This document shows, piece by piece, positions 1 to 28,011 of a stretch of DNA of 64,000 nucleotides. This DNA is from a virus. Its lineage: Duplodnaviria > Heunggongvirae > Uroviricota > Caudoviricetes. The number at the start of each line of letters is the position of its first letter. Positions within the stretch are counted from its first letter, which is position 1. The stretch is from IMG/VR virus record IMGVR_UViG_3300021387_000076. The stretch is one strand, 5' to 3'. The position numbers and the translations under genes were made by a program. The notes below the pieces were generated by a model. The model ran no database searches and was not told where the DNA came from. It worked only from the letters and a program-made list of their open reading frames with translations.

Positions 1-3000
1 CCAGATGTTTCCTCAGTATTCATATGGTATTCGTGGCAACATTTCTGATATCGAACTTCAGGATCTCAGAGCTTTGAGAAGTAAAGCAATAGCTTCTGTT
101 GACAGAAAGATAGCAGAAAGAAGAGCAAAAGAAGGTCTCTCCGAAACGGCTGCTTACTTTAAGGGTCCAAACGGTGAAAATATTGCGAAGTATCGCAGTG
201 AGATGTTGGGTAAATACTACATCGATGACGATCCAAAACATCCATCAATTAACGTTGTGGATAACATTGGTGACTTTGGTTTCACTACAAGGAACCTTGA
301 AAACGCACTGAAGGAAGATGCCCTTCATAATTTCTATAACGATCCCAATGTTTACCTCGTAGGCCGTAATCAGACGATGATGCAGCAGATGAGAGAAACA
401 AAACGAATTGCAGAAGATGCAATGGCGAACTCTGAACAGGAAGATCTTCAGGCAATAGAGGCATTTGATTCACAACCTGTAGATAACAGTGCTGCTCAGA
501 AAGCAAATAAAGAGGCAAACAAGGCTGAAACCGAAGCAGTCAAAGCTGAGGTGGAAGCCGCTAATGCAAGAAAAGAAGCAGCTGAAGCAAGGAAGCAGGC
601 AGCTGAAGCTCAGAAAGCTACGGAACAAACTGCTGAACAAGCTGTAGCCAAAGCTGAAAAAGCTACAGAACAACAGGCACGTCATGCATTGGACTATGCC
701 GAATATACGGTTACAAGAACAATGCCGTGGATGGATACCGATACCGTTGACGAACATGGAAATCCTGCTGTTGGTCTTGAAAACATTTATGTTACCAAGA
801 AGAATGGAAAGACCGAAAAAGGTAATCTTCCTGTAAGTCTTGCTCCTTATACCCCCAGAGGCCAGAAGAAAAGGACTATGGAAGAGGGCAGAAAAGAACA
901 GGCTTCTAATGAAAAATATGGTTCGTCTTCTTCAGGTGCTGATGCTTTAATTGGCAGCTCTATCAGTCATGTTATGGATCAGCTTGGTCCGACTGCGTTG
1001 ACGAAAACCATATATGGTGAAGGCTTGCACGGCATTGAAAAGCTTGCTTATCAAGGTCTTAAAGAGTATTACACAAATCACGAAGAAGAAATGAAACAGC
1101 TTGGAATCACATTCAATGATGCAGACATGTCTGCTTTCGATCCAAGCAAAACTAATTTCAGTTATTCAGGTAAAGATGCAAAAATACTTGATAAGCTCAA
1201 TGCTTTAACTCCTGCAAAACTTGCAAGATATTTTGTTGATGATATTGTCCACCAAGACAGAGATCGCAACGGAGTACTTTCTGCTAAAGATGATGCCAGA
1301 ACTATTATTTCTACTGAAGGCAAGATCTATGATCCTATCATGGGTAATGTGCTCAATGAAAGCACAATGGTTTCAGGTCCTTCTGGCGGAGAAAAGGAAA
1401 TTGGATACACACTCAAAGGAATCAAGAATTCCAAAGGTGAAGATGTTGTTACCAGATTTGCTCCTGACTATATTGTAAGAGACGGCAAAACTGGCAAAAT
1501 AGTTATAGGCGACCACAAGTCAAGTCCGCATGGCGCAGACAAGGGCATCATACAGGGGTCTGTATATGCTGCATGGCTCGATGATCTCGCTGAAGAATAT
1601 TATAAAACAACAGATGAGAACAGGAAAAGAGAACTTGATCCATATAAAATATTTGGTCAGCTGAATGACAAAGGCGAGTATGAATCAAATATCGTTGGCA
1701 TTGAAACAAGAGACTTTTTCACAGGGACTACTGACAGGAGAGAATATAATCAGGAAATAAGACGTCTTGAATCAGAGCGCATAAGAAAAGCTCAGGAGAA
1801 AAAATACGCTGAAGCTCAAGGAAACTTTGGTAAATATGGTCTTAATGATATTCCTGTTGTTACTACGGCAGGTGAAGAACCTCCTGCCGGCAGCAATCCT
1901 CCTTCTTCGCCTAATAGTAATCCTCCGGTAAATGCACAGGCAGCTGCAGCGGATAAGCGAAGAGAAGGTTTCTTCCAGGAATATCAGTTGCTTATCAACA
2001 GATATTCCAAACTGAACGAGTCTTTCGGCAACTTCACCTCTGGAATGACAGGTGAACTGTATAAAGATCGTGAAGGAACATATGCTGATAATTACTTCAG
2101 AAGAAGTCGTCATTCCAGAGATAATGTAGTTAGCGACACCAATCTTCTCAAAAATAGCTTTATAGATCTTTATGATAGAGCAGGTTGGCCAGACACAAAC
2201 GATCTTATTAACACGTTAGAGGCAAACAAGACTGCAGCCATTAACGCTTACGATGTCGGCACGAGAGCCTGGGCTCAAAACAGATCAAAACGTCTTCTTG
2301 AAAATGCTGAAAATTTCAGCCTTCGTAAGCAGGATCCGTTCTACAAACAGAGAGAAGAAATAGAGAATCAAAAGAATAATGTCAAAGAAATGGAATCTAC
2401 GCTTGACAATTTTATTCTTTCAAGGTTCGAAAAATCGGAGATAAGCAGAGACGAAAACACTGGTGCGATAAATGGTATTTTGCAGGATGGAAAAATTGTT
2501 GCCATTAGAGACGCTGTACTGAACGGAAAAGAAAACAATGATACTGTTGAATTGATGAAGACGCGTCTCGAATCATTAAAGACTGCATCCGATGAGAACA
2601 TTAAACTTATCAATGAGCAGATAGAACGCGATGTTGACAGGGAAATTGCTGACATGCAGGAAGCAAGCGATGCTGTTACAAAAACACATCAGACATCTGG
2701 TCAGCAAAGAGAGAATTACTGGAATAAAAAAAGAAGAAAACTGAGTGAATCAATAGAAGACAGAATTGTTGCACGCGATGCTTTAGACAAAATGCTGGAA
2801 GATACTGAGACGTACAAAGAAGACAATCCAAAGAGAAAACAATTGGAGCGTCTGCGTGATCAGTATAACAAATCTATAGATCAGGAATCTGAATATCTCA
2901 ACAATGGCGGCTTTGACAAAGACAGTCAGGATGATCTTCAGGCTCTAAGGACGAGCAGGTTAAATCAGCTTAGACATTATTTCAGTGGAACAAGAGAAAG

Positions 3001-6000
3001 CCCTATTGCTCAAATGGTTTCCAATGGAATGCTGTCACTGAAAGATCTTGACAACAATGGTGACATTTTAAACGCCGGAAGTCAATTCTATCAGGGCATG
3101 TTGGGAATGCTTGATGAAAGCATAAGCGGACAAAAAGCCAGGTATACAAACTTTGTTGACGATCTTTCAAGAACAGGCAACATGTCTGTTACGGAGAGAA
3201 TAAACAGAAGTTATCAAAGCAAGCGTATGCAGTCTCTTGCATCTATAAAGCAGATGCAGCAGGAAGCTATCGATCTTGATAAGATGCTGACGACCGGAAA
3301 AGATCTTGACGGTCGTGAGATGTTTGATGTTAACGATACTTCTGAAACAACTCAGGGCATAAAAAACAGAATCGAAAAATATAGAGACTTTTTAAAAGAT
3401 ATTTCAAAGCAGGCGCAAGATGCTCTTGACAAAACTCTTCCTGATCAAGAAAGCAAAGAAATTGCCAGAACTCTCGAAGATGTAAAAACGCAGAGCGAGA
3501 TCCAGACGGATAAATATCAATATGGCGCTAATCAGATTCAGAGATCTGAAGCTGCTCGCAGACGTCAGCTTGATATGCATTCGCGTGGTTATCGAAGTGC
3601 ATTCGGACAGGAACTTGAATGGAGAAGAAATCAGTACGATAATGCTGTTTCTCGTGAAGAAAGTTATTCTTTAAGAAGAAAGCAATTGAATGCTGAAAGA
3701 ACAAGACTGCAACGTCAGCTTGATGACGATGACGCTAATGAAGAAAAACTTAGCTCCGAAGAGAGAAGTGGCATCGAAGGTCAGCTTGCAGCTGCGACCA
3801 ACGAATACGAAGCTCTTGGTGAAGCAATCGTCAAAGCAAGGCAGGAGCAGACAGAGTTTGGGGCATCAGGCCAGGCAGTTGCTGCTGCATTGACTGTTAT
3901 TGGCGGGGCAGTTTCAAAAGTCGCCAAGCAGTTTGGCACCCGCATTTGGCATATGGCTATGCAGGAAACGATGCAGTTTGTTAAATCGTATGATGCAGCT
4001 ATGACTGAAATTCAGATGGTTACACTTAAAACAGACACCCAAATATCAAACATCGGTAAAGGTTTAATTGATTCGGCTATTCAGCTCAAAGCTCCAATTG
4101 CTGACGTTACAGCGGCGGCTACCGCGCTGTACCGTCAAGGTCTCGGAGACGAAGATGTTCAAACGAGACTTCAGGATGTTATAAAATTCTCTACTACTGC
4201 AGGTGTTAAAGCTGCAGATGCAGTAAAACTTATTACAGTTTCTCTCAACTCTGGTTTAGTTAGCAGCTCCCAAGAGGCGATGGATGTTATATCGGCTCTT
4301 GGTGATTCAGCCGCAACCACAGCGGCTGAGATCACCAAAGGTCTTCAGAAGTCTGTTTATGCAGCAAAAGATGTCGGTGTAAGTTATAACGAACTTGTTT
4401 CAATGCTTACCGCAATTACTGCCGGCACTCAGCTTGGTGGCAACATAGCAGGTACTGCAATGCAGACATTTATGAGCCGCTTCTCCAAAATCGGAACAAA
4501 CGAACTCGTCTATGATGAGAATGGAAATCAGATGAGTGGATCCGCACTTGCAAGTGTTCTCCAATCTGTTGGTATAAAAACATATGAAGGCGGAGAACGT
4601 AGAAGGTTTACAGATGTGCTCAGTGAGCTTGCTGGACAATGGGATAGCTTATCAGATGCAAGAAAGAGTCAGATCTCTTATGCGTTTGGTGGAACACGTC
4701 AGTACTCAAACCTTAACGCGTTGCTTACTGCATTTGGCGAGGTTGATGAAAACGGACAGACAGCAATAGAGAAGTATCTTGGTATTGCTAAAGGCTCGGA
4801 AGGTATGACTGATGCAAAATATCAAAGCTACACCGAAAGCCTTGCTGCGTCTATCAATACATTAAAAAATAGCTTTGATGGCCTTGTTGAGTCGCTTACA
4901 AATACTAATGTGTTAACTGGTTTTATTGACTTTATATCAAATGCTATTACAGGAATAACAGAATTGAACACGGCTCTCAGTGGTGTTCCGGCTATACTTG
5001 TAGCGATAGGTGCAGCATTAACAGTTTTAACGTCTTCGAATCCGATATTGTTAGGAATTGCTGCAGCAATTGCTGGAGTGGCAGCGGTTGGCAATATTGC
5101 CCACAATATTGCAACATCTTCTAAAGTAAACTCAGATCCTCTCCATAATTTGAATTCATCAAAGAGTTCAATTGAAAAAGATAACGCAGCAAGAGTATCA
5201 CAAGTAAAAGAAAATCTGGGCATTGCAAGACAGCTTAATAAGAAAAGACTGTCTGGTCAGGAGTTGTCACAGGATGAAAGCAGCAGACTTGTTGAATCTT
5301 TAAGCAAACTGCAAAATCTTGGAGTCGATAGCATCAAAGCATCGACTGATATTAATGCCCTTGCGGCAAGCGCTCAGGCTACAGCTAAAGCGTTAGACGG
5401 AGTAACTACAGCTGCTACTGCTTTAAGCGACAGACAGGTTAAAGAACTTCTTAATGCATTCCTTACTGATGTAGATAACAATAAAGAACGTTTTCAGGAA
5501 GACAAAGATAAAATAAGTTTGTCTGATGAGGAACGCGAAACTGCTAGAAATGCAATAGATAAAGCAAAGAATAAACAATATGGCAGTGCGCTTGAATTTT
5601 ATGAAGATATTATTCCTGTTTTAAATGCTATGGATTTGTCTGGGCTTGACCGCATAACAGTCAATAGAAAAACAAATACTCCAAGTAAATTTTCTCCGCA
5701 GGAGTTGGCAGGTGTTTTATATACTGCTTACTCAAACACCCAAGAAGATCTTGAAGACTTAGGCATTGATGACTTTAACATAAGTGAATACTCTCAGTTA
5801 ATGGATGTCATTGAGTCTGTTCTGAGTAACGGTGACAGCTTGAATCGTTTAAAGAATACATTTATGTTCGGTGAAAGCAATAGAGCTGGAATAACAGAAC
5901 TTGTAAAACAAAGTCTTGCAGGTACAGCACATCAGGATATTACTGACGCTATCATCGAATCAATAATAGCGGATGCAAATCAAGCAGAAAATTTTGACTT

Positions 6001-9000
6001 CCTCAATGGTGATGTTCGAGGATACGCATCATTATATGCCGCACGTAATAAAAAAAACGTTGTCACCAACAGATCTAAAAATGGTAATTTGCTTGGATCT
6101 GCTGCATCTGCTTTGGTATTAAGCGGGGATTTAACTGGAAGTTTTGATAGTCTTTATGAGTGGCTTGGAAGCCGTAGAGGCAAAGCAAAGAATGATGTAC
6201 TGATAAGAGCATTGAATAGACAGTTGCAACTTGGAGCTGAAGGTTCTTTTCCTATGCTTGAAAGCATGTTGCAGGATCCAGACTTTGCAAAAGCATTATT
6301 ACGCTTTGGTACATTAAATGAAGACGGTACATACACATTTAATGAATATGATGAAACAGATGAAAACAATAACGGTATTCCAGATGTCGAAGAGACAGGA
6401 AAAGTTAATGGTGTTTCTGATGAAGATCTCGATTACCTTATGCGAATCATTGCATCCAAAGGCAAAAAATACAAACTTGCAAGTTACAGAAGCAATGCCG
6501 ATATACTTTCTTCTGCACAGAATGCAATTACTTCACTTGGTCAGGGAACAAAATGGAAAGATCTTACAGATGATGCCTTACAAGATGTTGCTGCTGTACT
6601 TGGTGAAGAATATTATTCAAAACTTGCAAACGGACAAACCTTGGATGATGCGCTTCTGAATAATTTGTATTCTAGATATTTAAACAATGTTTCTTCTTAT
6701 TCTCAGACAGGCTATGCAAAACTAGGACAAAACCTGTTATCAAGCATTGGTACTTCTGGTTACACTTTAAAGGGATGGCAGGATGAGAATAATCTTACTC
6801 AAGCTGATATGGATTCAATATTCCAGCTTTATGATGGACTCAAAGAGGTAGCGTCAATGACGGACGCGGAACTCGAAGCTGGTGGTTATAATCCAGAAGA
6901 AATCAAAAAAGGTGCAGAGAAGACTTTAAATCTTATCACTACTCTTGCTAACATTGGAGAATCAGATTGGTCTGATATGTCCAAGAATGCAATAACAAAA
7001 TTCAACGGTACATATGCCGAACAACTTTCTGAATATAGTGATCTTATTTCTCAAAATGATAGGTTTAATGAAGCAAAGAAAGCTATTGAAAGAGTGAAAG
7101 AAGGCGAGTGGCTTGAAACAGATCTGAGTACATTACAAAGTCTTACCGGAATCAAGATAGACTTCAAGAATGTTGACACTGCAATTGATGATGTTGAATC
7201 TGTTTACAATACGCTTGTGACAAATTTCAGTAATGGTTTGAATGAAACATTAATGAATGTTGTATCCGAAGAAACAATAAGCGATATAAAGATAGAAAAG
7301 CCAACACTGAATACTTCAGAGTTAGTTGGATATCTTGGAAATTCTGTTGAAGAATGGGTAAAGCGTGCAATAGAAGATCTGGGTATCGCAATGCAGAACG
7401 GTGAGTTTGTTTATGATGTAGAAAACCTTAATCAAGTTACTGCAACAACTGTTGCTGGAATAATGAGCGGTTATAACAACAATCAGACAAGCAAAAATAT
7501 TAACATTCTTTCAGGAATCAGAAATGCTCTCAAAGATGAAGGAAACACATCTTTAGATGAAGAGCTTTCTGGTTTCAGTGCTGATGATTTAATGGAATGG
7601 TTTAAAAACAATCCAGTCGCTTCTGAGCTTGCGAACAGAGTTGGTTCTGAATATTCGGGTTTCTATTCAAGACTGATTGATGGCATGATAAATCCTCAGG
7701 AAAACAAAGGCGTTGCATATAATCAGGACTTGCTTAGACATTACATTGACAGAATGAATAAAGGTCAATCGTTCGATATTGTTAATGATGCTGTTGATAA
7801 ATTCATTTACGATGAACTTACTTCTGCGTATGGTGCAGACTTTACCAACATGTTCAGAAACGGATATAACGAAACAATTGCCAACAACCTGCTCACTGGA
7901 GTAAGTTCGTTTAGAACGAGACAGCAAGCTGTCGATAATGTAAGAACTATTGTTAGTGATATTATTGGTGGGAGAAAAGACTTTGCATCTCTTAGTGAAA
8001 ACAGTACCGATCTTAATGATCTTAATGCTATTATCCCGGAGAACATAAGAGGCGGATTGTTTGGAGAGGGTAGTGTTTATACAGCGGAAAATAGAGACGC
8101 TATACTTGAGCGCCTGTATTCTCAATATCTCACTGGTCAAGGTATGAATAATTATGATATCGCAAACTATGCCAAGACAATGCTGGATGACTATGAGAAT
8201 ATCAGAACAAACGGATTGCAGCAATGGGGCATTGACAATGGTTTGCTCGACAGTGAAATTGATACCATATTAAACGCGTACCAGGGCCTCAGAGAATTTG
8301 TTACTGGCCCGGCTTCAAATATTAATGATGCAATAACAAAGAGAGCTCTTACTTCGCAGATGCTTTCGAACATGGTTTCAGAATCTGACTACAGTGATCT
8401 CACGAAAGCGTACATTTCTTCGCTTAACGGAAGTGAAAGCGAAAAAGATGCATTGCTTGCCGAAAGACAGGTAGAAATGGAAACCTACGATGAAGTGGAT
8501 GAAGCCATTAAAAGAATAGAATCTGGAAATTACAGTGACACTGATCTTGCAACAGTAAACAAACTGTCTCCTTATGCTCTTACGATGGATAATGTTGGGT
8601 CATATCTCGGCCTTGCTAAATCATCAATTACCCGCACGAGAACAAATAAACAGTCTGCATTAATTGAAGCCCTTAATACTTTATATCCAAATGCTAATGT
8701 TACAGATGAAACTATTCTGAATAACCTTAAAGCACTTGGGATAAAAATAGTAGATGGCAAATTTGTAACAGATGAAGCAATACAGAATCCTTCTATTTCT
8801 TCTCTTAGTTCACGGTCAAGCGCACAATACAACAAAGAAGCTGTTGACAGAAACAGTATACTGAGTCAGATTTCAACGCTTGTTAATCAGTCTTTCTTTA
8901 AAGAAGACTACGAAGGATCTCTCTTTGATCTTCTTCCTGATAACAGTCAGTTCAGAGACTTCTTTAAAAATCAACAGGCCAACGGACTCATTAATGAACT

Positions 9001-12000
9001 GTTGGTTGCTGCAAATAATAAAACAATTGATCAGGGACAGTTCAATAATCTGTTCGAAGGTTTTATTAATCCTAATGGCAAAAAATCTGCTGATTACTAT
9101 GCCTCTGCTTTTAAATACTACAGAGATCAGATAGCTAATCAGGAAACTGTACTTGAAGGAAGTTTCAACGACTACATTGTTGATATGCTTACCGGAACCT
9201 TTGGCGAAACTTTCACAAAAGGTAGAACGGACAGCAAGCTTACAGCAGAGGATACATTCTTTGATATGTATCTTGAAATAGCGAAGAAACGCATGGATAA
9301 GTATTCAAATAAAACTGCCTATAGCAAAGCTATGAGTCTGCTTGACAGTTATGCGAATGCTCCAGAAACTTTACTTCAAAGTGATATTGAAGATCTGACA
9401 AGGCCTATTGCCAGAGCCAAAGAAGAATTCAATAATTATGATGCACGACAAAACACGAGTGCAATTGCTTCTGTTCTTGGATGGAGTCAGGATACGGTTA
9501 AAGAAAAAATGCAAACAGATAAAGGTCGCGCCGAAGTAGAAGAAGCAATTAAGAAAACAGAAGAGACTACAACGGAAGCCATAACTATGCTGATCGACAC
9601 GTTGAGAAGCAGCATAGCATCTGCTTTCAACGTATCTGGGGACAGTGTTGAAGAAGTTGACGGCAAGATAGCTGAAGTTGCCGGAGAAATAGGACAACTG
9701 TTTTCTCAGCTTGTTGAAAAATATGGTCACCTCGTCATTACTCCAGAAGCCGATCAGACATATTCAGAGTTGTATGATAATTTTATTAACAGCCGCAATA
9801 CAGGAAGTCAGCGCGATATCTTTGGTTTTGCAAAACGAATGAAAGAAAATGGTCAGACTTTCAGTAATGTTACTGCAACAGCAGGTACAAACGAAGATGC
9901 ATATATAAGAGCTCTTCTTGGCGACAAAGCTTACATGAATATGTTTGAAGCCAATCAGCGTAACATTTTATCTGACAGCGCATTTGATACTTATTTATCG
10001 AATCGGCAAAACGGTACTGACAATCAATACTCTGTGTATAGCAATATCCTTGATAACTTACTTGGTGGCGGAGTTGAAGGTGGTTTCCTTGGAAGTCTTG
10101 AAAATGGAACCATAAGTGCAGACACAATAACAAATACTCTTTCTGCACCTGATAATACGTGGATCAGAGACTATATTGAATCGCTCAATGGCGGCAAAGA
10201 AGCGCTTGAAGACATTAGCAAAGGCGGGGAAAATGCCAAGAATGGTATTGATCAGTTGGCTGCTGCAATGAGAAATGCAGGTGCCAGTGCTGCTAGTGAT
10301 TACAGAAACGATCTTACCGAAATGACGAACATTCTGAACAATCTTAAAAAAGGCGGGCAGGATGCTGGCAAAGCGATGGGTCAGCTTTCGAAAAAACTTT
10401 ACGATGCCTACGATAATGTGCTTGCTTCTAATAGAATCCGTGGAAAGTCTGGCAAGCAGGTTGACAAAACAACCAGAGGTATTGTCGGAGAATTTCTTGG
10501 TATAAGTGATGACAAGCAGATTCAGAAGATGACAAAAAAACAAATGGACCACGTTGCTGATCTTATGGAGTCATCTGGTAAAGATGCCATAGACAATGGT
10601 TTTGTTAATTCTTTTGAAGAAGAATTAAAGAATGCTCTTAATGCACTGCAGCCCGGAAGCGAACAGTACAAATTAGTTAATAGTATTCTACTCAAAGCAG
10701 TTGCTGATGGCGAAGTTGATACCTCTGAACTTGATGCCGTCATTGCCGCACTGCAGAACGATGTTCTAAGCTCAATGAATGCTGCTATTGGTCCGATTGG
10801 CACTCTCATGTTGAGCATTTTTGCAGCAGGAAATTCTATTACGGCTGCATTAACAGGTGGGGCACAGCTGGGTACTGCTCTTTTATCTGGTGCAAAAGCT
10901 AACGTAAATCTTAACACAGGCAACAAAGCAAAATACCAAAGCCACGGCGGTGGTGGAGGTGGCGGAGGCGGTAAATCCGAATCTGCTGCTGAGAAGCTTG
11001 TCAACCGTGTTAAGAAAGGCAGCGAGCTTTATAACCACCAGCTTAAGATGATCCAGTATCAGGAGACAAAACATCAGAACGCTGGAGAACTTACCATGTA
11101 TGGCAACGAACTCCAGAGAGAGATTGATCTTGAGAAGGCATATCAACCTGCACTTCAAGAAAATATCAAAGCTCTGAAATCTCAACTTAACAGTGTGTCT
11201 AAAGGTTCTGAAGACTGGTATAAACTTCGCGAAGCTTTATTCAGCGCCGAAGAACAATACGACGATATTACGAATACCATCGAAGAGAATGAAAGAAAGC
11301 TGAAAGAAAACCGTGAGGCTATTCGTCAGACCAGAACTGCTCTTGAAGATCTTCTCACTTCTCAAATAGAAGAAAGAATCAAGAAGCAGCGTGACATGCT
11401 TGCTGGCACTGTAGACATGCAGTCCATTATTCTTGATGCTATCAGGCAAAGATACCAGGATGAATGGGATCTTATAAAGAAAGATATCGAGAAGAAAAAA
11501 CAGGCGCTTGAGCAGGAGAAGTCTCTTATTGACGAGCGTCTCAATCTTCGTAAGAACGCTGCAGACGAAGCGAAGAAATATGAAGAACTTGCTGAACTCA
11601 AGTCTCAGCTTGCCCGTGTTTCCATGGACAGCACCCGTACAAAGGATGCTGCGGCTCTTCGTGAGCAGATTGCAAAGATTGAAGAAGAGATCGGCTGGGA
11701 TATTGCTGATCAACAGGCTGAATCTGAAAAGCAGCAGATTGATGACCAGATCAAAGGTTATGACGAGTTTGTTGCTCAGGGTGACGAGGATCTTTCCAAG
11801 TTCCTCGAGGACACAAACAACTTTGCTCAAGAGATTACTACAGTTCTCGGCATGAGCCATGATGAGCTCTTCGCGTGGCTCAAGAATAACGTGACAGACT
11901 TCAAGAATAGTCTCGACGAAGTCCAGCAACAGATGATAGACAGCTGGGAAGATACCTACAAACAGATGTTTGGTATCACGGATACTTATTGGGAACAGGT

Positions 12001-12994
12001 TAACGCAATTCTCAGTGATAAAGATACCTTCCTTAACTTCATGCGCGAAAGCGATGAATATGTCAATGCTTCTGAAACTGAGAAGCAGTCTCTTATTTAC
12101 GAATGGGAGAAACTGTATGACGACTACGTCAAAGCTCGTCTAAATGGGCCAGTAGGTTCTCATAGTGACGAAGGCTATGGTGACTGGTACGGTTCCGAAT
12201 ACACCGGCGCTGATGGCGGTGGCGGTGGAGGCGGAGGATCTGGTGGATCCAGCGGTGGCCCTGGTACTTCAACAAGCAATGAAGATGAATGGCTTTGGTA
12301 TGCTGTTGATCAGCGTGGCAAAGTTATATCTGCTGGATATGCGAAAAAAGAAGATGCTGAAGCAATAGCAAAAAGAGAACAAGGCGGAAGAGTAATGCGG
12401 CTGCATAAATCCAACGCATCGACAGAAGCTAAAGTTAATACTGCTGTATATTCTGTCACAGATCCAATCAAGTCTACAGTCAATTCTGTGGCAAATTCTG
12501 CTATTGGCTCAACAATTGGAAGTATCGCAAAAACAGTAGGCAACGCTACGTCGAATGCATTAAGTGCAATAACAAATTCAATTGGAAAACTTTTTAAACC
12601 TGCAAAAGCTGACACAGGTGCATATACTGGCAATCAGGAAGGTTTAATCTACGTTCATAAAAAAGAACGTATCCTGAATCCTCAGCAGACTGAATCATTC
12701 GAACGTTTGACTCGTGTTGCTGAATCTATGGACAGAACAAATGCTTTTGATGGTATTGTTTCCAAGATGAATGACTGGTCCAGCAATACTGTTGTTCCTA
12801 TCGACATGCCTTCGTTCAGTCCTTCTGACTTTAAGAACTCTACCACTACGACCATTGGTGATATCATCATTACTCTCAATGAAGCCAAGCTCGAGAACGA
12901 TGCTGATTACGAAGCGGTTGCTCAGAGAGTTGGCGAGAAGTTCGTCAAGGAACTTACCAAACAGGGACTTGGTGTTTCTGCTTTTGGCTTCTAA
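1..12994 (+). CDS. Tail tape-measure protein, 5'-truncated by the window edge (at least 4329 aa). It has a TP901-family TMP core domain at about nt 4000-4750, long coiled-coil Ala/Glu/Lys-rich regions and two poly-Gly linkers.
   Basis: Single uninterrupted ORF. The frame is open back to position 2. The stretch AIQLKAPIADVTAAATALYRQG...GTAMQTFMSRFSKIG...ISYAFGGTRQYSNL matches the conserved TP901-family phage tape-measure core. It lies immediately upstream of Dit-like and Tal-like genes. Confidence 0.8.
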   Translation, partial: QMFPQYSYGIRGNISDIELQDLRALRSKAIASVDRKIAERRAKEGLSETAAYFKGPNGENIAKYRSEMLGKYYIDDDPKHPSINVVDNIGDFGFTTRNLENALKEDALHNFYNDPNVYLVGRNQTMMQQMRETKRIAEDAMANSEQEDLQAIEAFDSQPVDNSAAQKANKEANKAETEAVKAEVEAANARKEAAEARKQAAEAQKATEQTAEQAVAKAEKATEQQARHALDYAEYTVTRTMPWMDTDTVDEHGNPAVGLENIYVTKKNGKTEKGNLPVSLAPYTPRGQKKRTMEEGRKEQASNEKYGSSSSGADALIGSSISHVMDQLGPTALTKTIYGEGLHGIEKLAYQGLKEYYTNHEEEMKQLGITFNDADMSAFDPSKTNFSYSGKDAKILDKLNALTPAKLARYFVDDIVHQDRDRNGVLSAKDDARTIISTEGKIYDPIMGNVLNESTMVSGPSGGEKEIGYTLKGIKNSKGEDVVTRFAPDYIVRDGKTGKIVIGDHKSSPHGADKGIIQGSVYAAWLDDLAEEYYKTTDENRKRELDPYKIFGQLNDKGEYESNIVGIETRDFFTGTTDRREYNQEIRRLESERIRKAQEKKYAEAQGNFGKYGLNDIPVVTTAGEEPPAGSNPPSSPNSNPPVNAQAAAADKRREGFFQEYQLLINRYSKLNESFGNFTSGMTGELYKDREGTYADNYFRRSRHSRDNVVSDTNLLKNSFIDLYDRAGWPDTNDLINTLEANKTAAINAYDVGTRAWAQNRSKRLLENAENFSLRKQDPFYKQREEIENQKNNVKEMESTLDNFILSRFEKSEISRDENTGAINGILQDGKIVAIRDAVLNGKENNDTVELMKTRLESLKTASDENIKLINEQIERDVDREIADMQEASDAVTKTHQTSGQQRENYWNKKRRKLSESIEDRIVARDALDKMLEDTETYKEDNPKRKQLERLRDQYNKSIDQESEYLNNGGFDKDSQDDLQALRTSRLNQLRHYFSGTRESPIAQMVSNGMLSLKDLDNNGDILNAGSQFYQGMLGMLDESISGQKARYTNFVDDLSRTGNMSVTERINRSYQSKRMQSLASIKQMQQEAIDLDKMLTTGKDLDGREMFDVNDTSETTQGIKNRIEKYRDFLKDISKQAQDALDKTLPDQESKEIARTLEDVKTQSEIQTDKYQYGANQIQRSEAARRRQLDMHSRGYRSAFGQELEWRRNQYDNAVSREESYSLRRKQLNAERTRLQRQLDDDDANEEKLSSEERSGIEGQLAAATNEYEALGEAIVKARQEQTEFGASGQAVAAALTVIGGAVSKVAKQFGTRIWHMAMQETMQFVKSYDAAMTEIQMVTLKTDTQISNIGKGLIDSAIQLKAPIADVTAAATALYRQGLGDEDVQTRLQDVIKFSTTAGVKAADAVKLITVSLNSGLVSSSQEAMDVISALGDSAATTAAEITKGLQKSVYAAKDVGVSYNELVSMLTAITAGTQLGGNIAGTAMQTFMSRFSKIGTNELVYDENGNQMSGSALASVLQSVGIKTYEGGERRRFTDVLSELAGQWDSLSDARKSQISYAFGGTRQYSNLNALLTAFGEVDENGQTAIEKYLGIAKGSEGMTDAKYQSYTESLAASINTLKNSFDGLVESLTNTNVLTGFIDFISNAITGITELNTALSGVPAILVAIGAALTVLTSSNPILLGIAAAIAGVAAVGNIAHNIATSSKVNSDPLHNLNSSKSSIEKDNAARVSQVKENLGIARQLNKKRLSGQELSQDESSRLVESLSKLQNLGVDSIKASTDINALAASAQATAKALDGVTTAATALSDRQVKELLNAFLTDVDNNKERFQEDKDKISLSDEERETARNAIDKAKNKQYGSALEFYEDIIPVLNAMDLSGLDRITVNRKTNTPSKFSPQELAGVLYTAYSNTQEDLEDLGIDDFNISEYSQLMDVIESVLSNGDSLNRLKNTFMFGESNRAGITELVKQSLAGTAHQDITDAIIESIIADANQAENFDFLNGDVRGYASLYAARNKKNVVTNRSKNGNLLGSAASALVLSGDLTGSFDSLYEWLGSRRGKAKNDVLIRALNRQLQLGAEGSFPMLESMLQDPDFAKALLRFGTLNEDGTYTFNEYDETDENNNGIPDVEETGKVNGVSDEDLDYLMRIIASKGKKYKLASYRSNADILSSAQNAITSLGQGTKWKDLTDDALQDVAAVLGEEYYSKLANGQTLDDALLNNLYSRYLNNVSSYSQTGYAKLGQNLLSSIGTSGYTLKGWQDENNLTQADMDSIFQLYDGLKEVASMTDAELEAGGYNPEEIKKGAEKTLNLITTLANIGESDWSDMSKNAITKFNGTYAEQLSEYSDLISQNDRFNEAKKAIERVKEGEWLETDLSTLQSLTGIKIDFKNVDTAIDDVESVYNTLVTNFSNGLNETLMNVVSEETISDIKIEKPTLNTSELVGYLGNSVEEWVKRAIEDLGIAMQNGEFVYDVENLNQVTATTVAGIMSGYNNNQTSKNINILSGIRNALKDEGNTSLDEELSGFSADDLMEWFKNNPVASELANRVGSEYSGFYSRLIDGMINPQENKGVAYNQDLLRHYIDRMNKGQSFDIVNDAVDKFIYDELTSAYGADFTNMFRNGYNETIANNLLTGVSSFRTRQQAVDNVRTIVSDIIGGRKDFASLSENSTDLNDLNAIIPENIRGGLFGEGSVYTAENRDAILERLYSQYLTGQGMNNYDIANYAKTMLDDYENIRTNGLQQWGIDNGLLDSEIDTILNAYQGLREFVTGPASNINDAITKRALTSQMLSNMVSESDYSDLTKAYISSLNGSESEKDALLAERQVEMETYDEVDEAIKRIESGNYSDTDLATVNKLSPYALTMDNVGSYLGLAKSSITRTRTNKQSALIEALNTLYPNANVTDETILNNLKALGIKIVDGKFVTDEAIQNPSISSLSSRSSAQYNKEAVDRNSILSQISTLVNQSFFKEDYEGSLFDLLPDNSQFRDFFKNQQANGLINELLVAANNKTIDQGQFNNLFEGFINPNGKKSADYYASAFKYYRDQIANQETVLEGSFNDYIVDMLTGTFGETFTKGRTDSKLTAEDTFFDMYLEIAKKRMDKYSNKTAYSKAMSLLDSYANAPETLLQSDIEDLTRPIARAKEEFNNYDARQNTSAIASVLGWSQDTVKEKMQTDKGRAEVEEAIKKTEETTTEAITMLIDTLRSSIASAFNVSGDSVEEVDGKIAEVAGEIGQLFSQLVEKYGHLVITPEADQTYSELYDNFINSRNTGSQRDIFGFAKRMKENGQTFSNVTATAGTNEDAYIRALLGDKAYMNMFEANQRNILSDSAFDTYLSNRQNGTDNQYSVYSNILDNLLGGGVEGGFLGSLENGTISADTITNTLSAPDNTWIRDYIESLNGGKEALEDISKGGENAKNGIDQLAAAMRNAGASAASDYRNDLTEMTNILNNLKKGGQDAGKAMGQLSKKLYDAYDNVLASNRIRGKSGKQVDKTTRGIVGEFLGISDDKQIQKMTKKQMDHVADLMESSGKDAIDNGFVNSFEEELKNALNALQPGSEQYKLVNSILLKAVADGEVDTSELDAVIAALQNDVLSSMNAAIGPIGTLMLSIFAAGNSITAALTGGAQLGTALLSGAKANVNLNTGNKAKYQSHGGGGGGGGGKSESAAEKLVNRVKKGSELYNHQLKMIQYQETKHQNAGELTMYGNELQREIDLEKAYQPALQENIKALKSQLNSVSKGSEDWYKLREALFSAEEQYDDITNTIEENERKLKENREAIRQTRTALEDLLTSQIEERIKKQRDMLAGTVDMQSIILDAIRQRYQDEWDLIKKDIEKKKQALEQEKSLIDERLNLRKNAADEAKKYEELAELKSQLARVSMDSTRTKDAAALREQIAKIEEEIGWDIADQQAESEKQQIDDQIKGYDEFVAQGDEDLSKFLEDTNNFAQEITTVLGMSHDELFAWLKNNVTDFKNSLDEVQQQMIDSWEDTYKQMFGITDTYWEQVNAILSDKDTFLNFMRESDEYVNASETEKQSLIYEWEKLYDDYVKARLNGPVGSHSDEGYGDWYGSEYTGADGGGGGGGGSGGSSGGPGTSTSNEDEWLWYAVDQRGKVISAGYAKKEDAEAIAKREQGGRVMRLHKSNASTEAKVNTAVYSVTDPIKSTVNSVANSAIGSTIGSIAKTVGNATSNALSAITNSIGKLFKPAKADTGAYTGNQEGLIYVHKKERILNPQQTESFERLTRVAESMDRTNAFDGIVSKMNDWSSNTVVPIDMPSFSPSDFKNSTTTTIGDIIITLNEAKLENDADYEAVAQRVGEKFVKELTKQGLGVSAFGF

Positions 12995-13053: not shown

Positions 13054-14124
13054 ATGCAAGGTGGCTTTAGCTTTTGCGGTGTTGATATTGCAGAGTTTGG
13101 CATGGAATATGTGCCGCCATTGCAGTCAACTTACGTATTTGGAAATGGTGGCTATCAGATAAACGAACAATTATATGAAGGCCATCATGGCGGCTATTTC
13201 TATGGAGCTACAGTGCCGCCAAAACAATTTACATTGCGATGTATGTTTGAAGACAGTGAAATAATTCGAGGCAATATCACACGCCTCGAAGGCTTTTTTT
13301 ATGTCGGCAGAACAGGCAGGCTTGTCTTCAACAACAGAGACTGGCTGTATTACACAGCAACCGTAGTTTCTGTATCGCCTCCTGAACTTACGAACAGAAA
13401 GAATGGTTTCATCACAATAGGGTTAAAGGCATATTACCCATTCGGCAGATGTGAGAAATTATATCTGACTGATGACGGTCTGTATGATTACTGGCTTGCG
13501 GATAACAGCGGCATGATGGAAGAGGAATATACCCCTGTGATGTCGTTTGCTGATGTTGATGAAAGTAAAAACATTCTTCTGTATAACGGCGGCACAGCGC
13601 CAGCTGAAGTGGCTGTCGCTGTTGCCGGCGATGCCGGTGAAGGAGTAACAATAAAGAACAACTCAAATAAAACAGAAATGAAACTTGTGGTATTCGATAA
13701 AGCCGGCACGACTGACGCTGGCAAATATGTTTTATGTGACAGTTTGAATCATAAGACAATTCTTACTGACGGAACCGATGACAGCAAACTTTATTTTGTT
13801 GCTCACGATCATGGCTTCCTCAGGCTTGAACCGTCATGTCCTATCAGGCGCGACGTATATGTTGATACCACACTTAATTCAAAAGAAGTGTACGGCTTCA
13901 ACCTTTTTAATGAAGGTATGATAGGTCACTATATTTATCTCGAAGGCTCATGGCAGAAGATAGTTGGACTGAAAGACAACAGCACAGCCATTCTTGAAAA
14001 GCCGATGCAGCTTACGAATTATTGCATGACAAACATTGTCAGAATGAATGAGATAAGTATTGAGCTTGGCGTAGGATGTAAACTAGACAAGCTTGACTTT
14101 ATATATAAGCCTACGTTTATCTAA
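13054..14124 (+). CDS. Distal tail protein (Dit)-like / phage tail family protein
   Basis: 356 aa ORF with RBS AAGGCGGTGA. Position directly after the tape-measure gene and before the Tal-like gene is typical for siphovirus Dit. Function assigned mainly by synteny. Confidence 0.5.
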   Translation: MQGGFSFCGVDIAEFGMEYVPPLQSTYVFGNGGYQINEQLYEGHHGGYFYGATVPPKQFTLRCMFEDSEIIRGNITRLEGFFYVGRTGRLVFNNRDWLYYTATVVSVSPPELTNRKNGFITIGLKAYYPFGRCEKLYLTDDGLYDYWLADNSGMMEEEYTPVMSFADVDESKNILLYNGGTAPAEVAVAVAGDAGEGVTIKNNSNKTEMKLVVFDKAGTTDAGKYVLCDSLNHKTILTDGTDDSKLYFVAHDHGFLRLEPSCPIRRDVYVDTTLNSKEVYGFNLFNEGMIGHYIYLEGSWQKIVGLKDNSTAILEKPMQLTNYCMTNIVRMNEISIELGVGCKLDKLDFIYKPTFI

Positions 14125-19635: not shown

Positions 19636-20802
19636 ATGTTTGACAATGATAATTTAATTTCGTACACTGAGAATGATATCGTGAAGCTTGACAACTGTAT
19701 AGATAAGTGCAACGGAGAAGATATGAGATACAGTGAAGTTTACACGTATGTGAATAGAAATGGTGTAAAAGAAAAGATAAGACTGTTTGGACCAGATAAA
19801 GATGCAACTGACTACAAGTTCCAGATGTTTCTTCTGCATGTGAACGATGCGCCGACATTAACTTTGGAAGAGTTTATAAACTCTGTATATTACAAAGGTT
19901 TTTTACCGAAAAAGGCATCTGCAGTTACGAGCTATAAGTTCTTCCTGAGTAAGTATATCCTGCCTAATATAGGTAAAAAACTACTCACAGATATAACAGT
20001 TTTTGATATTCAAAACCTTCTTGACTGGATGGCTAACGGATCAAAGAATGGACTGAGAAAAGATATTGCCGAAGGTACGATCAGCAGAGTCAAAGGTTTG
20101 ATATCACATATATTTAATATCGCTGTGGATATGAAGTATGTTGAAGACAACCCTGTAAAGAGCACGCTGCTTAAGAACAACGGTGCTGAATCTGAACATC
20201 ATGAGGCTTTATCCGACGAAGATATAGCTTTGGTTAAGAGCAAGATACCGAAGCTTAGGAAAGAAACAGACATGGTTTGTATTGGGATCATTGCCTATAC
20301 TGGCATGAGACCTGAAGAAGTTCGTGGACTTATGTGGGATAACATTCACTTGGACCAGCAATATATAGAGGTCAAGCGTGCTGTCACTTATGTTGGAAGT
20401 GACAGGCACGCGAACATAGATACTCCAAAGACAAAGAAGTCTATCAGGACTGTATACATGCCGAAGCCGCTGTGTGATATTCTGACTGCAGTAAAAGAAA
20501 AAGAAGGATACCTTGTTCACGGAAGAGATCCTTCGAAGCCTATAGCCTGCGCATCATGGACAAAATTAATCAGTAGAATATTTAAAGAGCTCGGAATAGA
20601 AGGAAAGTATGTTCCTTATGACTTCCGCGCTACGTATGCAACTCAGTTTAAGGAAAGCGGAATGAGCAGTGCTCTGGTCGCTGACCTTATGGGACACGCC
20701 GATACCAGAATGGTTGAAACAATTTATGCTAGAACCAGGCATCAGAGTATCATGAAGCAGGCTGACAAAATTGAAGAATTAAACAGGATGTATGTGCACT
20801 AA
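19636..20802 (+). CDS. int: Tyrosine-type site-specific integrase
   Basis: RBS TAGGAGATAAAT before ATG. C-terminal catalytic region PYDFRATYAT...GHADTRMVETIYARTRH fits the R..HxxR..Y motif set of phage integrases. Confidence 0.85.
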   Translation: MFDNDNLISYTENDIVKLDNCIDKCNGEDMRYSEVYTYVNRNGVKEKIRLFGPDKDATDYKFQMFLLHVNDAPTLTLEEFINSVYYKGFLPKKASAVTSYKFFLSKYILPNIGKKLLTDITVFDIQNLLDWMANGSKNGLRKDIAEGTISRVKGLISHIFNIAVDMKYVEDNPVKSTLLKNNGAESEHHEALSDEDIALVKSKIPKLRKETDMVCIGIIAYTGMRPEEVRGLMWDNIHLDQQYIEVKRAVTYVGSDRHANIDTPKTKKSIRTVYMPKPLCDILTAVKEKEGYLVHGRDPSKPIACASWTKLISRIFKELGIEGKYVPYDFRATYATQFKESGMSSALVADLMGHADTRMVETIYARTRHQSIMKQADKIEELNRMYVH

Positions 20803-23855: not shown

Positions 23856-24068
23856 TTATGCTGTGTGATATCCAACCCATCCGCAGTCACATTCATACTG
23901 GTACTGACACGGATAAGAAGTAAGAATAATATCCATGCGCTTCCATATTCTTTTGCCGCATATCGGACATTCAATATCTGTTTCAATCCGAGAAACAGTA
24001 TTATTAATAGGAAGCTCGCGCTTAATGTAGTCATTCCACTTCATTACTTTCACCTCTGTGGTACACAA
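23856..24068 (-). CDS. Small zinc-finger protein
   Basis: CPICG...CDCGW motifs. Confidence 0.3.
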   Translation of the reverse strand: MCTTEVKVMKWNDYIKRELPINNTVSRIETDIECPICGKRIWKRMDIILTSYPCQYQYECDCGWVGYHTA

Positions 24069-24795
24069 GATCTTCTATATATTCAGGCTGATCATGGAAC
24101 GATGGGATCTGATAATCAATGAACCATTTGCGGTCTTCACCTTTTTTGACACATATACCAAGTCTGTTTTCAGCCAATACATTGTCCCAGTCTATTCCTT
24201 TAGCCAGAAGCATTTCTTTGATATTGTTGCCTTTCTTTGCATACAATTCCTTTTGTGTGAAATGCATTCTTGCTAAAGTCTGAATTGAATTCTTTTCACA
24301 GTCTCTCTGCCGCCAGAGAAAATAGTTAAGTACTTCTTCGCGAGGCAGAGTAAATGCACGGGAGTCGAATATCGCCGGCCTGAAAGTTTCAAATGCTTTT
24401 GCGAGTCCGTTGCTTGCAAACCCACATTCAACTGCGATCTTCATCGCGTGATTGAAGTGCAGTGTAGCCATCGCAGCGGAGACACTTGTAATTTTCTGGA
24501 GGTTTTTATCAAACCATGGTTGTGTCTCATAGGTATCGTCGTCCATAACAAGCAGGCTTATTTCATCCGACTGAGTGTATGCAAGCTTTGCTCCCATGAT
24601 ATCTCTGCAGAGCTGCCTTGCCGTGTCAGCCATACAACTGCTGAGCGACATATCAAATGGACGGTCAAAGTCTTTTGTAAAAGTATGGAAGTGACATCCG
24701 TCAATGCGGATGATCATCGGAGTTCTTTTGGTAAGGTATTTTCTTTCGATGTTTTCGTAACCTTTCATCCTGTCACCAAGAGAGGTTTTATCCAT
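24031..24795 (-). CDS. Thg1-like protein (tRNA-His guanylyltransferase-like 3'-5' nucleotidyltransferase)
   Basis: Strong SD AAGGAG 9 nt before the ATG at 24795. Motifs IIRIDGCHFHTFTK, AYTQSDEISLL and FDSRAFTLP line up with Thg1 family motifs (RIDGxxFHxFS, ESDEYSF, FDSR) recalled from yeast Thg1. Confidence 0.65.
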   Translation of the reverse strand: MDKTSLGDRMKGYENIERKYLTKRTPMIIRIDGCHFHTFTKDFDRPFDMSLSSCMADTARQLCRDIMGAKLAYTQSDEISLLVMDDDTYETQPWFDKNLQKITSVSAAMATLHFNHAMKIAVECGFASNGLAKAFETFRPAIFDSRAFTLPREEVLNYFLWRQRDCEKNSIQTLARMHFTQKELYAKKGNNIKEMLLAKGIDWDNVLAENRLGICVKKGEDRKWFIDYQIPSFHDQPEYIEDLVYHRGESNEVE

Positions 24796-24994
24796 TGTTA
24801 ATATCTCCTTGCAGAAACTCATATGTTATGACAGGCGATGCTGTCGCTGCTGTCGCAAGTCTTATTGTCTTAAGTGCATCAACAGCCATCATGAGAGCCT
24901 GTCTGTATTTTCCACTGAGATAGTCATGATGAAGTTTCATGTCATTCTCAATCATCGCAATTGCTTCGTCGATAGTCATTTTCTGCTGATACAC
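24788..24994 (-). CDS. Hypothetical protein (68 aa)
   Basis: ORF only. Confidence 0.3.
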   Translation of the reverse strand: MYQQKMTIDEAIAMIENDMKLHHDYLSGKYRQALMMAVDALKTIRLATAATASPVITYEFLQGDINNG

Positions 24995-25274: not shown

Positions 25275-25448
25275 CTAAAACCAAATAAGGTTTTGCACTC
25301 TCCTGCTAGCTGGAACATTCGGATGCCATCCACGACTTGTTCTTACGACCTCGGAGCATGTAAGAAGCGCAGGCTTGTCCGATGAAGTTATCTGTTGGCT
25401 TCAGATATACCACTCGGACTCCCTTGGTACGCTGTACGGTCTGATACG

Positions 25449-25519
25449 CTGAGATGGCAGGAATTGAACCTGCAATAGGGGAGTCAAAGTCCCCTGTTAT
25501 TCCACTTAACTACACCTCA
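25449..25519 (-). tRNA. tRNA-Gln (anticodon UUG), 71 nt, CCA not encoded
   Basis: Hand-folded cloverleaf. Acceptor TGAGGTG/CATCTCA with U1:A72 and one G-U. D-arm GTTA-AGTGGAA-TAAC. Anticodon arm GGGGA-CTTTGAC-TCCCC with U33 and A37. T-arm GCAGG-TTCAATT-CCTGC. Confidence 0.8.
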
Positions 25520-27183: not shown

Positions 27184-27197
27184 TTTCACTTCACTTG

Positions 27198-27383
27198 AAT
27201 ATGTGGGTAAGGATTTGCACCTTACATAATGTCCTCTGTCTTTTGACACCGTAGGAGCGCGAAACCTACGAATGGGGACATCGAAGTTTGTCTCTACGTC
27301 TACTGTTACTGAGCGTCTCGCCACAGTTTTACCATCCTTTCGCCGTAGCCATTGGGATGTCTATTCCGCCACCACAAAATTGG
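27198..27383 (-). ncRNA. tRNA-like unit 1, degenerate (D-arm motif damaged, long insert). Possibly a pseudogene.
   Basis: T-arm hairpin GTAAGG-ATTTGCA-CCTTAC at 27207-27225. D-like motif at 27359-27373 lacks a pairing stem. Confidence 0.25.
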
Positions 27384-27480
27384 TATTTGCCTTTACTCAC
27401 GCATGAGTGTTTGCTGCTGCCGATACCTCGATGGAAGTGGTTTTCATCCTTCCTGCTCTCCGAAGAAAGCAGCCGCTATT

Positions 27481-27612
27481 AATATGTGGGTAGGGATCTG
27501 CACCCTACATGAACGCTTGCAATTAATGCTATCTATCTGTGGAATCAATTGCTGTGCAATATCTTCGTGCGTTCGTATTGTTAACTGTGTCTATCTATTC
27601 CACCACCACATG
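27481..27612 (-). ncRNA. tRNA-like unit 2
   Basis: Acceptor CATGTGG/CCACATA (6 of 7 bp, position 1 mismatched). D-arm GTG-GAATAGATAGA-CAC. T-arm GTAGGG-TGCAGAT-CCCTAC. Insert between D-arm and T-arm of about 80 nt. Confidence 0.4.
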
Positions 27613-27613
27613 A

Positions 27614-27730
27614 ATATGCGGGTCAGGATTTGCACCTGACATAGGCAGGATTGCTGTTTTTGCATGCTCGGATGGATGCGTCTGCCGCCCTACCGATACT
27701 GGCTGTGTTTACCTATTCCACTACCGCATA
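27614..27730 (-). ncRNA. tRNA-like unit 3
   Basis: Perfect 7 bp acceptor TATGCGG/CCGCATA. D-arm GTG-GAATAGGTAAA-CAC. T-arm GTCAGG-TGCAAAT-CCTGAC. 64 nt between D-arm and T-arm. Confidence 0.45.
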
Positions 27731-27897
27731 AAAAAACACATGGCCCAACCGAATCGAACGGCAGGATTAAGCCCTGTAGTGCTGTCCATAAGGATGACTT
27801 TGCAGAGAACCAGGCACCATGTAATTGTGATCTAAGGCGTCACAAGACCTCACTCTTGAACCTCAGGAACTCCGAGTGAATCAGTTTCATACGATGT

Positions 27898-28009: not shown

Positions 28010-28011
28010 CA

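Follow-up and report, generated by a model that had tools for sequence, protein, structure and literature searches.

A giant phage tape-measure protein with a putative nuclease domain and a candidate N-terminal RNA polymerase module

The first 13 kb of a 64,000-nucleotide stretch of the virus record IMGVR_UViG_3300021387_000076 (IMG/VR; Caudoviricetes), hereafter the window, are occupied by a single open reading frame (ORF) that encodes a giant tail tape-measure protein (TMP). Frame +2 is free of stops from nucleotide 2 to a stop codon (TAA/TAG) at 12992–12994, a span of 4330 codons; in the two remaining forward frames, 465 and 231 stops occur within the first 14 kb. The ATG at nucleotide 5 in the ORF listing was rejected as the gene start, as the full gene extends upstream of the window. 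Features of the locus are collected in Table 1, and residues are numbered from the first in-window codon unless a homologue is named.

The identity of the ORF as a TMP, put forward in the original prediction, was confirmed by profile searches and by gene context. TIGR01760 matched aa 1326–1676 (E=1.5e-27; 96.6 bits against a cut-off of 28.8; profile positions 14–347 of 349), PF10145 (PhageMin_Tail) matched aa 1360–1559 (E=1.9e-17; 64.3 bits against a cut-off of 33.2), and PHROG 4211, 'tail length tape measure protein', matched with E=1.3e-34. Of the whole protein, only this core has counterparts in known phages, SPbeta YomI and Bacillus phage PBC2 among them; searches of all other TMP segments against Pfam, NCBIfam, PHROGs and PDB sequences gave no match. 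PDB profile matches to the NHL repeats of TRIM proteins were discarded as short repeat-motif artefacts. The core is followed by two adjacent hydrophobic helices, whose position is the same in all full-length homologues. Directly downstream lie genes for the distal tail protein Dit, a Tal-like minor tail protein, a 143-aa protein and an integrase; the match of Dit to Pfam Sipho_tail, at 21.7 bits, falls slightly under the 24.2-bit gathering cut-off. The order TMP–Dit–Tal recurs in SPbeta (yomI–yomH–yomG) and in the phage carrying L001, a 5192-aa ORF on a 113-kb IMG/VR contig, where the giant ORF is followed by genes for proteins of 355, 1854 and 140 aa and is directly preceded by two small overlapping ORFs (4815–5273 and 5230–5703), where a G/GT-like pair of tail assembly chaperone genes would be expected; neither of the two matched any family. 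Neither a lytic transglycosylase nor a peptidase domain, both common in TMPs, was found in the giant protein.

The length of the missing 5' end follows from a second assembly. ENA contig ERZ12302816 NODE_1546 (46.6 kb) shares 3312 TMP residues of the fetched locus with the window, all of them identical, and on it the TMP product was called at 5649 aa; with 4330 residues in the window, this places ~1319 residues further upstream. Both the position of the 5' end outside the window and the exceptional length of the protein had been foreseen; the complete gene exceeds the 5002 and 5006 aa of the TMPs of phages P23-45 and P74-26. An exact look-up of the Dit protein returned seven contigs with an identical Dit in ENA and Logan assemblies, and in five different assemblies the identical Dit gene adjoins the giant TMP gene. 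One of the identical-Dit contigs, L006 (ENA ERZ12302851 NODE_618), is a second rumen contig with a TMP called at 5271 aa. L001 is colinear with the window TMP at 49% identity, the first window residue aligning to its residue 1400. When 1.84 billion representative proteins were scanned by HMMER with aa 226–600, giants of 5632 (P0001), 6777 (P0002), 4565, 5714 (P0006) and 5428 aa were found, along with a fragment of 1893 aa and a stand-alone protein of 144 aa (P0003) homologous to the nuclease domain described below. P0001 is 76.5% identical to the window TMP across all 4330 residues. Other searches were poorer in relatives: a protein database search with aa 1–700 and aa 321–590 found no match, not even the identical protein, its word index seeming blind to giant proteins; contig scans of IMG/VR, JGI metagenomes and GTDB with several queries gave one related contig only; and among 50,697 phage records neither megablast nor tblastn matched anything outside the TMP core.

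Full-length members of the family share a fixed order of parts: a DxDGD motif (aa 1043–1109 in the homologues), a nuclease-like domain marked by DxK...QxxxY (aa 1776–1941), the TMP core (~aa 2500–3850), the two hydrophobic helices, a variable region, a poly-Gly tract and a helical module of ~410 aa. A second poly-Gly tract is present in four of the six full-length members, and the C-terminal module was detected in all of them except P0007, which ends just past the helical module. The first ~100 window residues probably belong to the end of the upstream polymerase-like module. The region between the Pro/Ser/Asn-rich linker and the core (aa 661–1300), which matched no family in profile library searches, is among the best conserved parts, together with the core, the 411-aa module and the C-terminal module. 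The region after the hydrophobic helices is only 12–29% identical to L001, worst at aa 1705–3135, and ~25–30% identical to L006. It contains a diverged tandem duplication, revealed when phmmer matched the protein to itself with a shift of ~475 aa (E down to 1.3e-16); a single L001 segment aligns to both copies, so that L001 is probably single-copy here.

The C-terminal end behaves as a separate unit. Compared with window 3056–12991, L006 is a mosaic in which the last 682 TMP residues are 96% identical and the middle ~25–30% identical, and the switch in identity falls exactly at poly-Gly tract 1; tract 2 differs between the two proteins by a 3-residue indel. This marks tract 1 as a conserved module boundary and indicates that the C-terminal ~680 residues are inherited with the tail tip. 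TMP C-termini act at the tip complex, which fits such inheritance with Dit, and the C-terminal module presumably contacts the tail-tip complex.

Parts of the original prediction needed adjustment in the light of this map. The core had been placed a third of the way in, which holds for the in-window part (31–39%) but not for the whole protein, where it lies in the middle (~47–53%). Both poly-Gly tracts exist, although tract 1 ends at 10972 rather than 10975 and tract 2 spans 12215–12259 rather than 12216–12260; they do bracket a module, namely the conserved 411-aa helical one, but a separate 241-aa terminal module follows. The description of the remainder as mostly coiled coil was not upheld, as heptad periodicity is strong only at ~aa 1100–1300, 1400–1700 and 3400–4000, and aa 305–548 are mixed alpha/beta.

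Table 1. Features of the window. Residues are those of the in-window part of the TMP; cells are empty where no value applies.
Feature	TMP residues	Nucleotides	Strand	Basis or remarks
TMP gene, 3' 77% (4330/5649 codons plus stop), 5' end outside the window		2..12994	+	open frame, identical ENA contig, colinear homologues
Conserved segment (QMFPQ[Y/F]S.G.RG...) continuing from the upstream polymerase-like module	1-120	2..361	+	alignments
Ala/Glu/Lys/Gln-rich low-complexity helical linker	121-226	362..679	+	74% helix formers, 1.9% Pro+Gly
Putative PD-(D/E)xK (RecB/Cas4-like) nuclease domain	305-548	914..1645	+	motifs in 8-9 sequences; Pfam matches of homologues
Motif I IIGSxxSHVMD	H323, D326	968-970 (H323)	+	conserved with substitutions
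E-G motif	E439-G440		+	invariant
P-D motif	P488-D489	1463-1468	+	invariant
D-x-K motif	D504-x-K506	1511-1519	+	invariant
Q...Y-A motif	Q518...Y522-A523	1553-1570	+	invariant
Pro/Ser/Asn-rich linker	600-660	1799..1981	+	23% Pro+Gly; weakly conserved, length-variable in homologue
Conserved helical region before the TMP core	661-1300	1982..3901	+	68% identity to P0001 and to L001
TP901-type tape-measure core	1326-1676	3977..5029	+	TIGR01760, PF10145, PHROG 4211
Two adjacent hydrophobic, transmembrane-like helices	1655-1704	4964..5113	+	Kyte-Doolittle 19-residue mean up to 2.2
Long variable region	1705-3598	5114..10795	+	no family match; least conserved part
Diverged tandem duplication (~475 aa), copy 1	2185-2616	6554-7849	+	phmmer self-matches
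Diverged tandem duplication (~475 aa), copy 2	2661-3073	7982-9220	+	phmmer self-matches
Third hydrophobic segment	3599-3617	10796..10852	+	hydropathy scan
Poly-Gly tract 1 (G9)	3649-3657	10946..10972	+	same position in all full-length homologues
Conserved 411-aa helical module	3660-4070	10979..12211	+	60-92% identity across family; strong heptad signal
Poly-Gly/Ser tract 2 (GGGGGGGGSGGSSGG)	4072-4086	12215..12259	+	sequence
C-terminal module (241 aa)	4090-4330	12269..12991	+	98% identity to P0001
Dit (distal tail protein)		13054..14124	+	PHROG 33 E=2.2e-13; Pfam Sipho_tail E=2.4e-4
Tal-like minor tail protein, 1654 aa		14137..19101	+	Prophage_tail E=2.5e-13, YOMG_N E=3e-7, PHROG 6211
Tyrosine integrase, directly after the tail genes		19636..20802	+	
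Thg1-like tRNA-His guanylyltransferase		24031..24822	-	PHROG 4717, E=8.7e-81
tRNA-Gln(TTG) gene		25448..25519	-	
Array of seven tRNA-like units		27195-28505	-	~105-150 nucleotides each
NrdD (anaerobic ribonucleotide reductase), split in two parts		38626-39471 and 36502-37500	-	
HNH homing-endonuclease ORF between the NrdD parts		37696-38616	-	
Endolysin		42586..43947	-	SpoIID, NlpC/P60 and SH3 domains
Second giant ORF, 2340 aa		50554..57576	-	C-terminal DUF6273; PHROGs 14959, 24896 (unknown function)
DNA polymerase III alpha subunit (PolIII-alpha), phage-encoded		60548..63811	-	

Residues 305–548 carry the marks of a nuclease. E-G, P-D, D-x-K and Q-xxx-Y-A are invariant in 8–9 sequences that are only 26–64% identical, the motif set of RecB/Cas4-type PD-(D/E)xK nucleases: the catalytic D...(D/E)-x-K was seen, as were the Q-x-x-x-Y that follows the (D/E)xK strand and, ahead of the core, a G-x-x-x-H-x-x-(D/E) helix. 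Members were scanned singly against 24,736 Pfam models, and the families that drew the most members were all PD-(D/E)xK; the best E values among homologues were 1.7e-5 for PDDEXK_1 and 3.3e-4 (to 9.4e-4) for Cas_Cas4, and L_protein_N, the bunyavirus L-protein endonuclease, was matched as well. A PDB profile search matched the PD-(D/E)XK entry 9iab on the same motif, at E=0.64. The segment contains no cysteine, so that the four-cysteine Fe-S cluster of Cas4 is absent and the domain is not Cas4 proper. This part of the protein is therefore read as a putative nuclease.

Upstream of the window, the homologues carry a signature of RNA polymerases. A motif pair, R-[S/N]-P...G followed by G-x-D-x-D-G-D, is invariant in all seven homologues; it lies ~250–300 residues upstream of the window start, the DxDGD of P0001 being 295 residues before window residue 1. 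Six homologues aligned over 900 positions at 17–35% identity have only 20 invariant columns, seven of which fall in the motif pair (R433/P435/G439 and D521/D523/G524/D525). The pair reads, for instance, 'TRSPAAFGAF...SGADVDGD' or 'TRNPSTMGT...NTGDFDGD', with 39–88 residues from the R-[S/N]-P...G to the DxDGD. Cellular beta-prime carries 'RAPTLH...NADFDGD', SPbeta YonO, an experimentally demonstrated two-barrel RNA polymerase, reads 'LRSPHLFREHG...FDNDGD', and the same pair in P74-26 and TSP4 gp96 reads 'FRNPVMGHGG...TGVDFDGD'. In a sliding-window hhalign scan against the Thermus phage protein, two overlapping DFDGD windows scored 28.3 (P=6e-4) and 24.7, and 23 other windows scored 8.6–14.6; the motif slice scored only on the DFDGD windows. 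The enzyme of P23-45 was itself found by looking for DxDxD in virion proteins; residues 327–1124 of its 5002-aa TMP, gp96, form an active RNA polymerase, the minimal active fragment of which ends ~345 residues past DFDGD, and for the rest of the sequence no resemblance to known polymerases could be detected (Chaban et al., 2024; PMC10770324).

Several observations weigh against these two assignments. The nuclease segment of the window matched no Pfam model by itself, only through its homologues, which makes the assignment transitive. The polymerase motif region lies outside the window and was read from homologues and the gene call; it was never recognised as a polymerase in Pfam, PHROGs, PDB and other profile and family searches. 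The hhalign match to the Thermus phage protein is confined to 49 columns at the motif; when the polymerase regions were aligned globally by hhalign, the probability was 2.6%, and whole-protein BLAST against the P74-26 TMP found no similarity. A second-barrel motif picked by eye (DGxGF...QxR...K against GDGALG...VQVR...KG) was dropped, as it gained no support in the sliding-window scan. AlphaFold2 models of P0001 aa 523–1422 (from a 6-sequence alignment) and of window aa 226–600 (from the single sequence) both had a predicted local distance difference test score of ~37 and were unusable for fold comparison, and no second DxDGD-bearing ORF, a possible non-virion polymerase, was found in the 64-kb window. 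As both structure predictions failed, the polymerase reading is drawn from motifs and architecture; on these, the upstream module is probably a two-barrel RNA polymerase.

The protein is free of cysteine throughout its 4330 in-window residues. P0001, P0002, P0006 and L001 also have none, P0004 has one and P0007 has four; nine other proteins of the window contain 0.85–3.9%. The 5006-aa TMP of P74-26 and the 2285-aa YomI of SPbeta likewise lack cysteine, and proteins that are stored in phage tails and ejected through them may in general be marked by its absence. That the enzyme-like modules share this absence with the ruler part argues for the whole chain being handled as one ejected protein, probably in an extended or metastable state.

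Tail length can be projected from known cases. The 5002 residues of P23-45 correspond to an 800-nm tail, or 0.16 nm per residue, and P74-26, with 5006 residues, has a tail of 'nearly 1 um'; these phages are described as having the longest known tails. At 0.15–0.16 nm per residue, the whole chain of 5649 residues predicts a tail of ~850–900 nm, the ~3730 residues after the nuclease ~560–600 nm, and the ~3000 residues from the core onward ~450–480 nm; the whole chain of the 6777-aa relative predicts ~1.0–1.1 um. A tail of 0.45 to 0.9 micrometres is plausible, given the P23-45 precedent of a full-length TMP of 5002 aa in virions with an 800-nm tail. The caveat of the original prediction that parts of the protein might be non-measuring decorations has gained substance, with a nuclease-like domain in the window and a polymerase signature in the missing N-terminus. 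A term search of a rumen-virus review turned up no electron microscopy report of very long-tailed rumen phages.

We consider it likely that the protein combines a ruler with a delivery vehicle for enzymes, a polymerase and a nuclease being fused to the TMP. The full protein would then consist, in order, of an N-terminal module of ~1300 aa with the catalytic double-psi beta-barrel signature, as in P23-45 gp96; the nuclease (aa 305–548) and a helical region; the TP901-type core with two membrane-type helices (aa 1326–1704); a fast-evolving, duplication-prone spacer of ~1900 aa; and a poly-Gly hinge, the 411-aa helical module, the second poly-Gly tract and a terminal module of 241 aa that is inherited together with Dit. 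If the protein works as the TMPs of P23-45 and of siphophages in general do, its C-terminus would nucleate tail assembly on the Dit/Tal tip, and the tube would polymerise along the extended, cysteine-free TMP and stop at its end. On infection the TMP would be expelled, its hydrophobic helices helping to build a channel, and the N-terminal enzymes would enter the cell together with the DNA. There the polymerase may transcribe the first genes and the nuclease may act on host or incoming DNA.

The alternative that survives best, though we regard it as unlikely, accepts the enzymes and denies that they are counted in the length. The tube would hold the chain only from the core onward, or from where the nuclease ends, the tail would be ~0.45–0.6 micrometres long, and the N-terminal 1900–2650 residues would be folded at the head–tail junction or in the capsid, or cleaved off. 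The lumen of a tail tube is ~4 nm wide, too narrow for folded polymerase and nuclease domains; the low-complexity (aa 121–226) and Pro/Gly-rich (aa 600–660) linkers between the modules and the position of the core in the middle of the protein also fit this arrangement. However, the enzyme modules are as cysteine-free as the ruler part. Virions of P23-45, moreover, contain the polymerase part within full-length gp96 (PMC10770324), and leaving the first 1200 residues out of the 5002 raises the 0.16 nm per residue of the 800-nm tail of this phage to 0.21, above the rise of an alpha-helix.

It is improbable, to a greater degree, that the DxDGD module is some other Mg-dependent nucleic-acid enzyme, such as a primase-polymerase or nucleotidyltransferase. 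The motif of one barrel only was matched, the second-barrel test failed and the structure prediction of the region was unusable, all of which leave room for such an enzyme. A polymerase is favoured by the pairing of R-[S/N]-P...G with DxDGD at 39–88 residues, as in gp96, TSP4 and YonO and in beta-prime as well, and by a location at the N-terminus of a giant TMP that mirrors P23-45. Slightly less probable again is a purely structural giant ruler, in which DxDGD and PD...DxK would be non-catalytic structural or metal-binding remnants; although no family or structure search identified a polymerase and the nuclease segment of the window has no direct Pfam match, the columns that stay invariant at 17–35% identity cluster at exactly the catalytic residues of two enzyme classes, and a homologue of the nuclease domain exists as a stand-alone protein of 144 aa. 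An assembly artefact or a frameshift fusion of several genes, the doubt raised in the original prediction, can be set aside, since the frame stays uninterrupted through large divergence of the homologues, the same unbroken architecture recurs in at least seven independent sequences at 25–77% identity, the gene is called at 5649 aa on an identical contig, homologues colinear with it span 4565–6777 aa, the five assemblies agree on the adjoining Dit gene, and nothing was found in favour of it.

The rest of the window bears on the source and host. One of the contigs with an identical Dit comes from run SRR873601, a sheep-rumen metagenome (Shi et al., 2014; PMC4158751), and the DNA comes from a large siphovirus-type phage of the sheep rumen, probably with a Firmicute as host. 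Features that fit such a host are the SPbeta-like tail genes, the endolysin with SpoIID, NlpC/P60 and SH3 domains, and PolIII-alpha, which has its best matches (~33% identity) among 140–170-kb siphophages of Geobacillus and Bacillus; the endolysin domains point to a Gram-positive host, possibly a spore former. No host genome or prophage copy was found among 185,579 species-representative genomes with the query used. The integrase and PolIII-alpha suggest a temperate lifestyle for a large phage, possibly one that carries a polymerase. The interruption of NrdD by an HNH ORF is probably the insertion of a mobile intron or other homing element. The second giant ORF lacks a DxDGD motif, and no domain besides its C-terminal DUF6273 was found in it.

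An array of seven tRNA-like units was also observed. In each, a T-arm-like hairpin combines a 6-bp stem with an invariant 7-nucleotide loop (GGGTNRGG-ATTTGCA-CCYNAC on the + strand); the pattern matched seven times against 0.01 expected, and the stems differ by compensatory changes. At least five units carry a D-arm-like box, GGTGGYGGAATAGGTAGAC, resembling type-II tRNA-Leu, and minimum free energy folds show an acceptor stem and a T-arm in several. ARAGORN, with default settings, and Rfam gave no match to the array. The adjoining Thg1-like gene and tRNA-Gln(TTG) suggest a phage module for tRNA repair or maturation.

By function, the closest known systems are P23-45 gp96 and P74-26 gp95, in which a TMP is fused to a polymerase (Chaban et al., 2024; PMC10770324). 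They share with the rumen protein a giant TMP (5002/5006 against 5649 aa) with an N-terminal R-N-P...G and DFDGD, the absence of cysteine, hydrophobic helices in the TMP part and a gene within the tail module. Similarity is undetectable, however, beyond ~49 columns around the motif, and DxDGD lies at ~aa 1043–1109 in the rumen family against 779 in the Thermus phage protein. The window protein adds a PD-(D/E)xK nuclease and a recognisable TP901-type core, and no metallopeptidase domain was found in it. Its phage is from the mesophilic sheep rumen, probably with a Firmicute rather than Thermus as host, and has an integrase and SPbeta-like Dit and Tal.

By sequence, the closest system is the tail module YomI–YomH–YomG of SPbeta. 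The TMP core finds its best database match in the cysteine-free YomI (2285 aa), at 27% identity over 350 aa; the TMP–Dit–Tal order and the YOMG_N domain in Tal are shared, and the single-subunit RNA polymerase YonO has the same R-S-P...G / D-x-D-G-D pair. In contrast to the rumen protein, YonO is a separate, unfused protein of 839 aa; the window TMP is 2.5 times longer than YomI, and a lytic transglycosylase, annotated for YomI in several SPbeta-like records, was not detected in it. TP901-1-type TMPs (TIGR01760/PF10145) share the core, matched near end to end and above curated cut-offs, but it makes up only 6% of the giant protein, whereas typical members have 600–2000 aa and lack polymerase and nuclease modules. 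In crAss-like phi14:2 gp66 and the N4 virion RNA polymerase, a virion polymerase that transcribes the first genes likewise lies inside a very large injected protein (PMC10770324); these are podovirus-type, however, with the protein stored in the capsid and no tail ruler, and the N4 enzyme is T7-like, not two-barrel.

So far, a handful of Thermus phages are the only known carriers of a virion RNA polymerase fused to the TMP (PMC10770324). Our search of the literature found none reported outside that group, and tblastn with the polymerase part of P74-26 against the 50,697 phage genomes returned 10 records, all from Thermus phages. We tentatively propose that the rumen family, with TMPs of 4565–6777 aa, is a second, sequence-unrelated lineage of TMP–virion RNA polymerase fusions, here joined by a nuclease, that giant TMPs are a general route for enzyme injection, and that tails of up to ~1 micrometre, possibly past the P74-26 record, are a consequence or co-requirement of the cargo. 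If so, such fusion would be a recurrent strategy and not a thermophile oddity, the puzzling TMPs of more than 5000 aa would be tied to enzyme delivery, with the nuclease as a new passenger, and whether a folded enzyme counts as ruler would become testable in a second system. Set against the 5002 aa that accompany an 800-nm tail, the TMPs of 5649 and 6777 aa would be candidates for the longest viral tails. The rumen origin, the lack of sequence similarity to the Thermus phage proteins beyond the motif, the added nuclease, the TP901-type core and members longer than any characterised TMP set the family apart.

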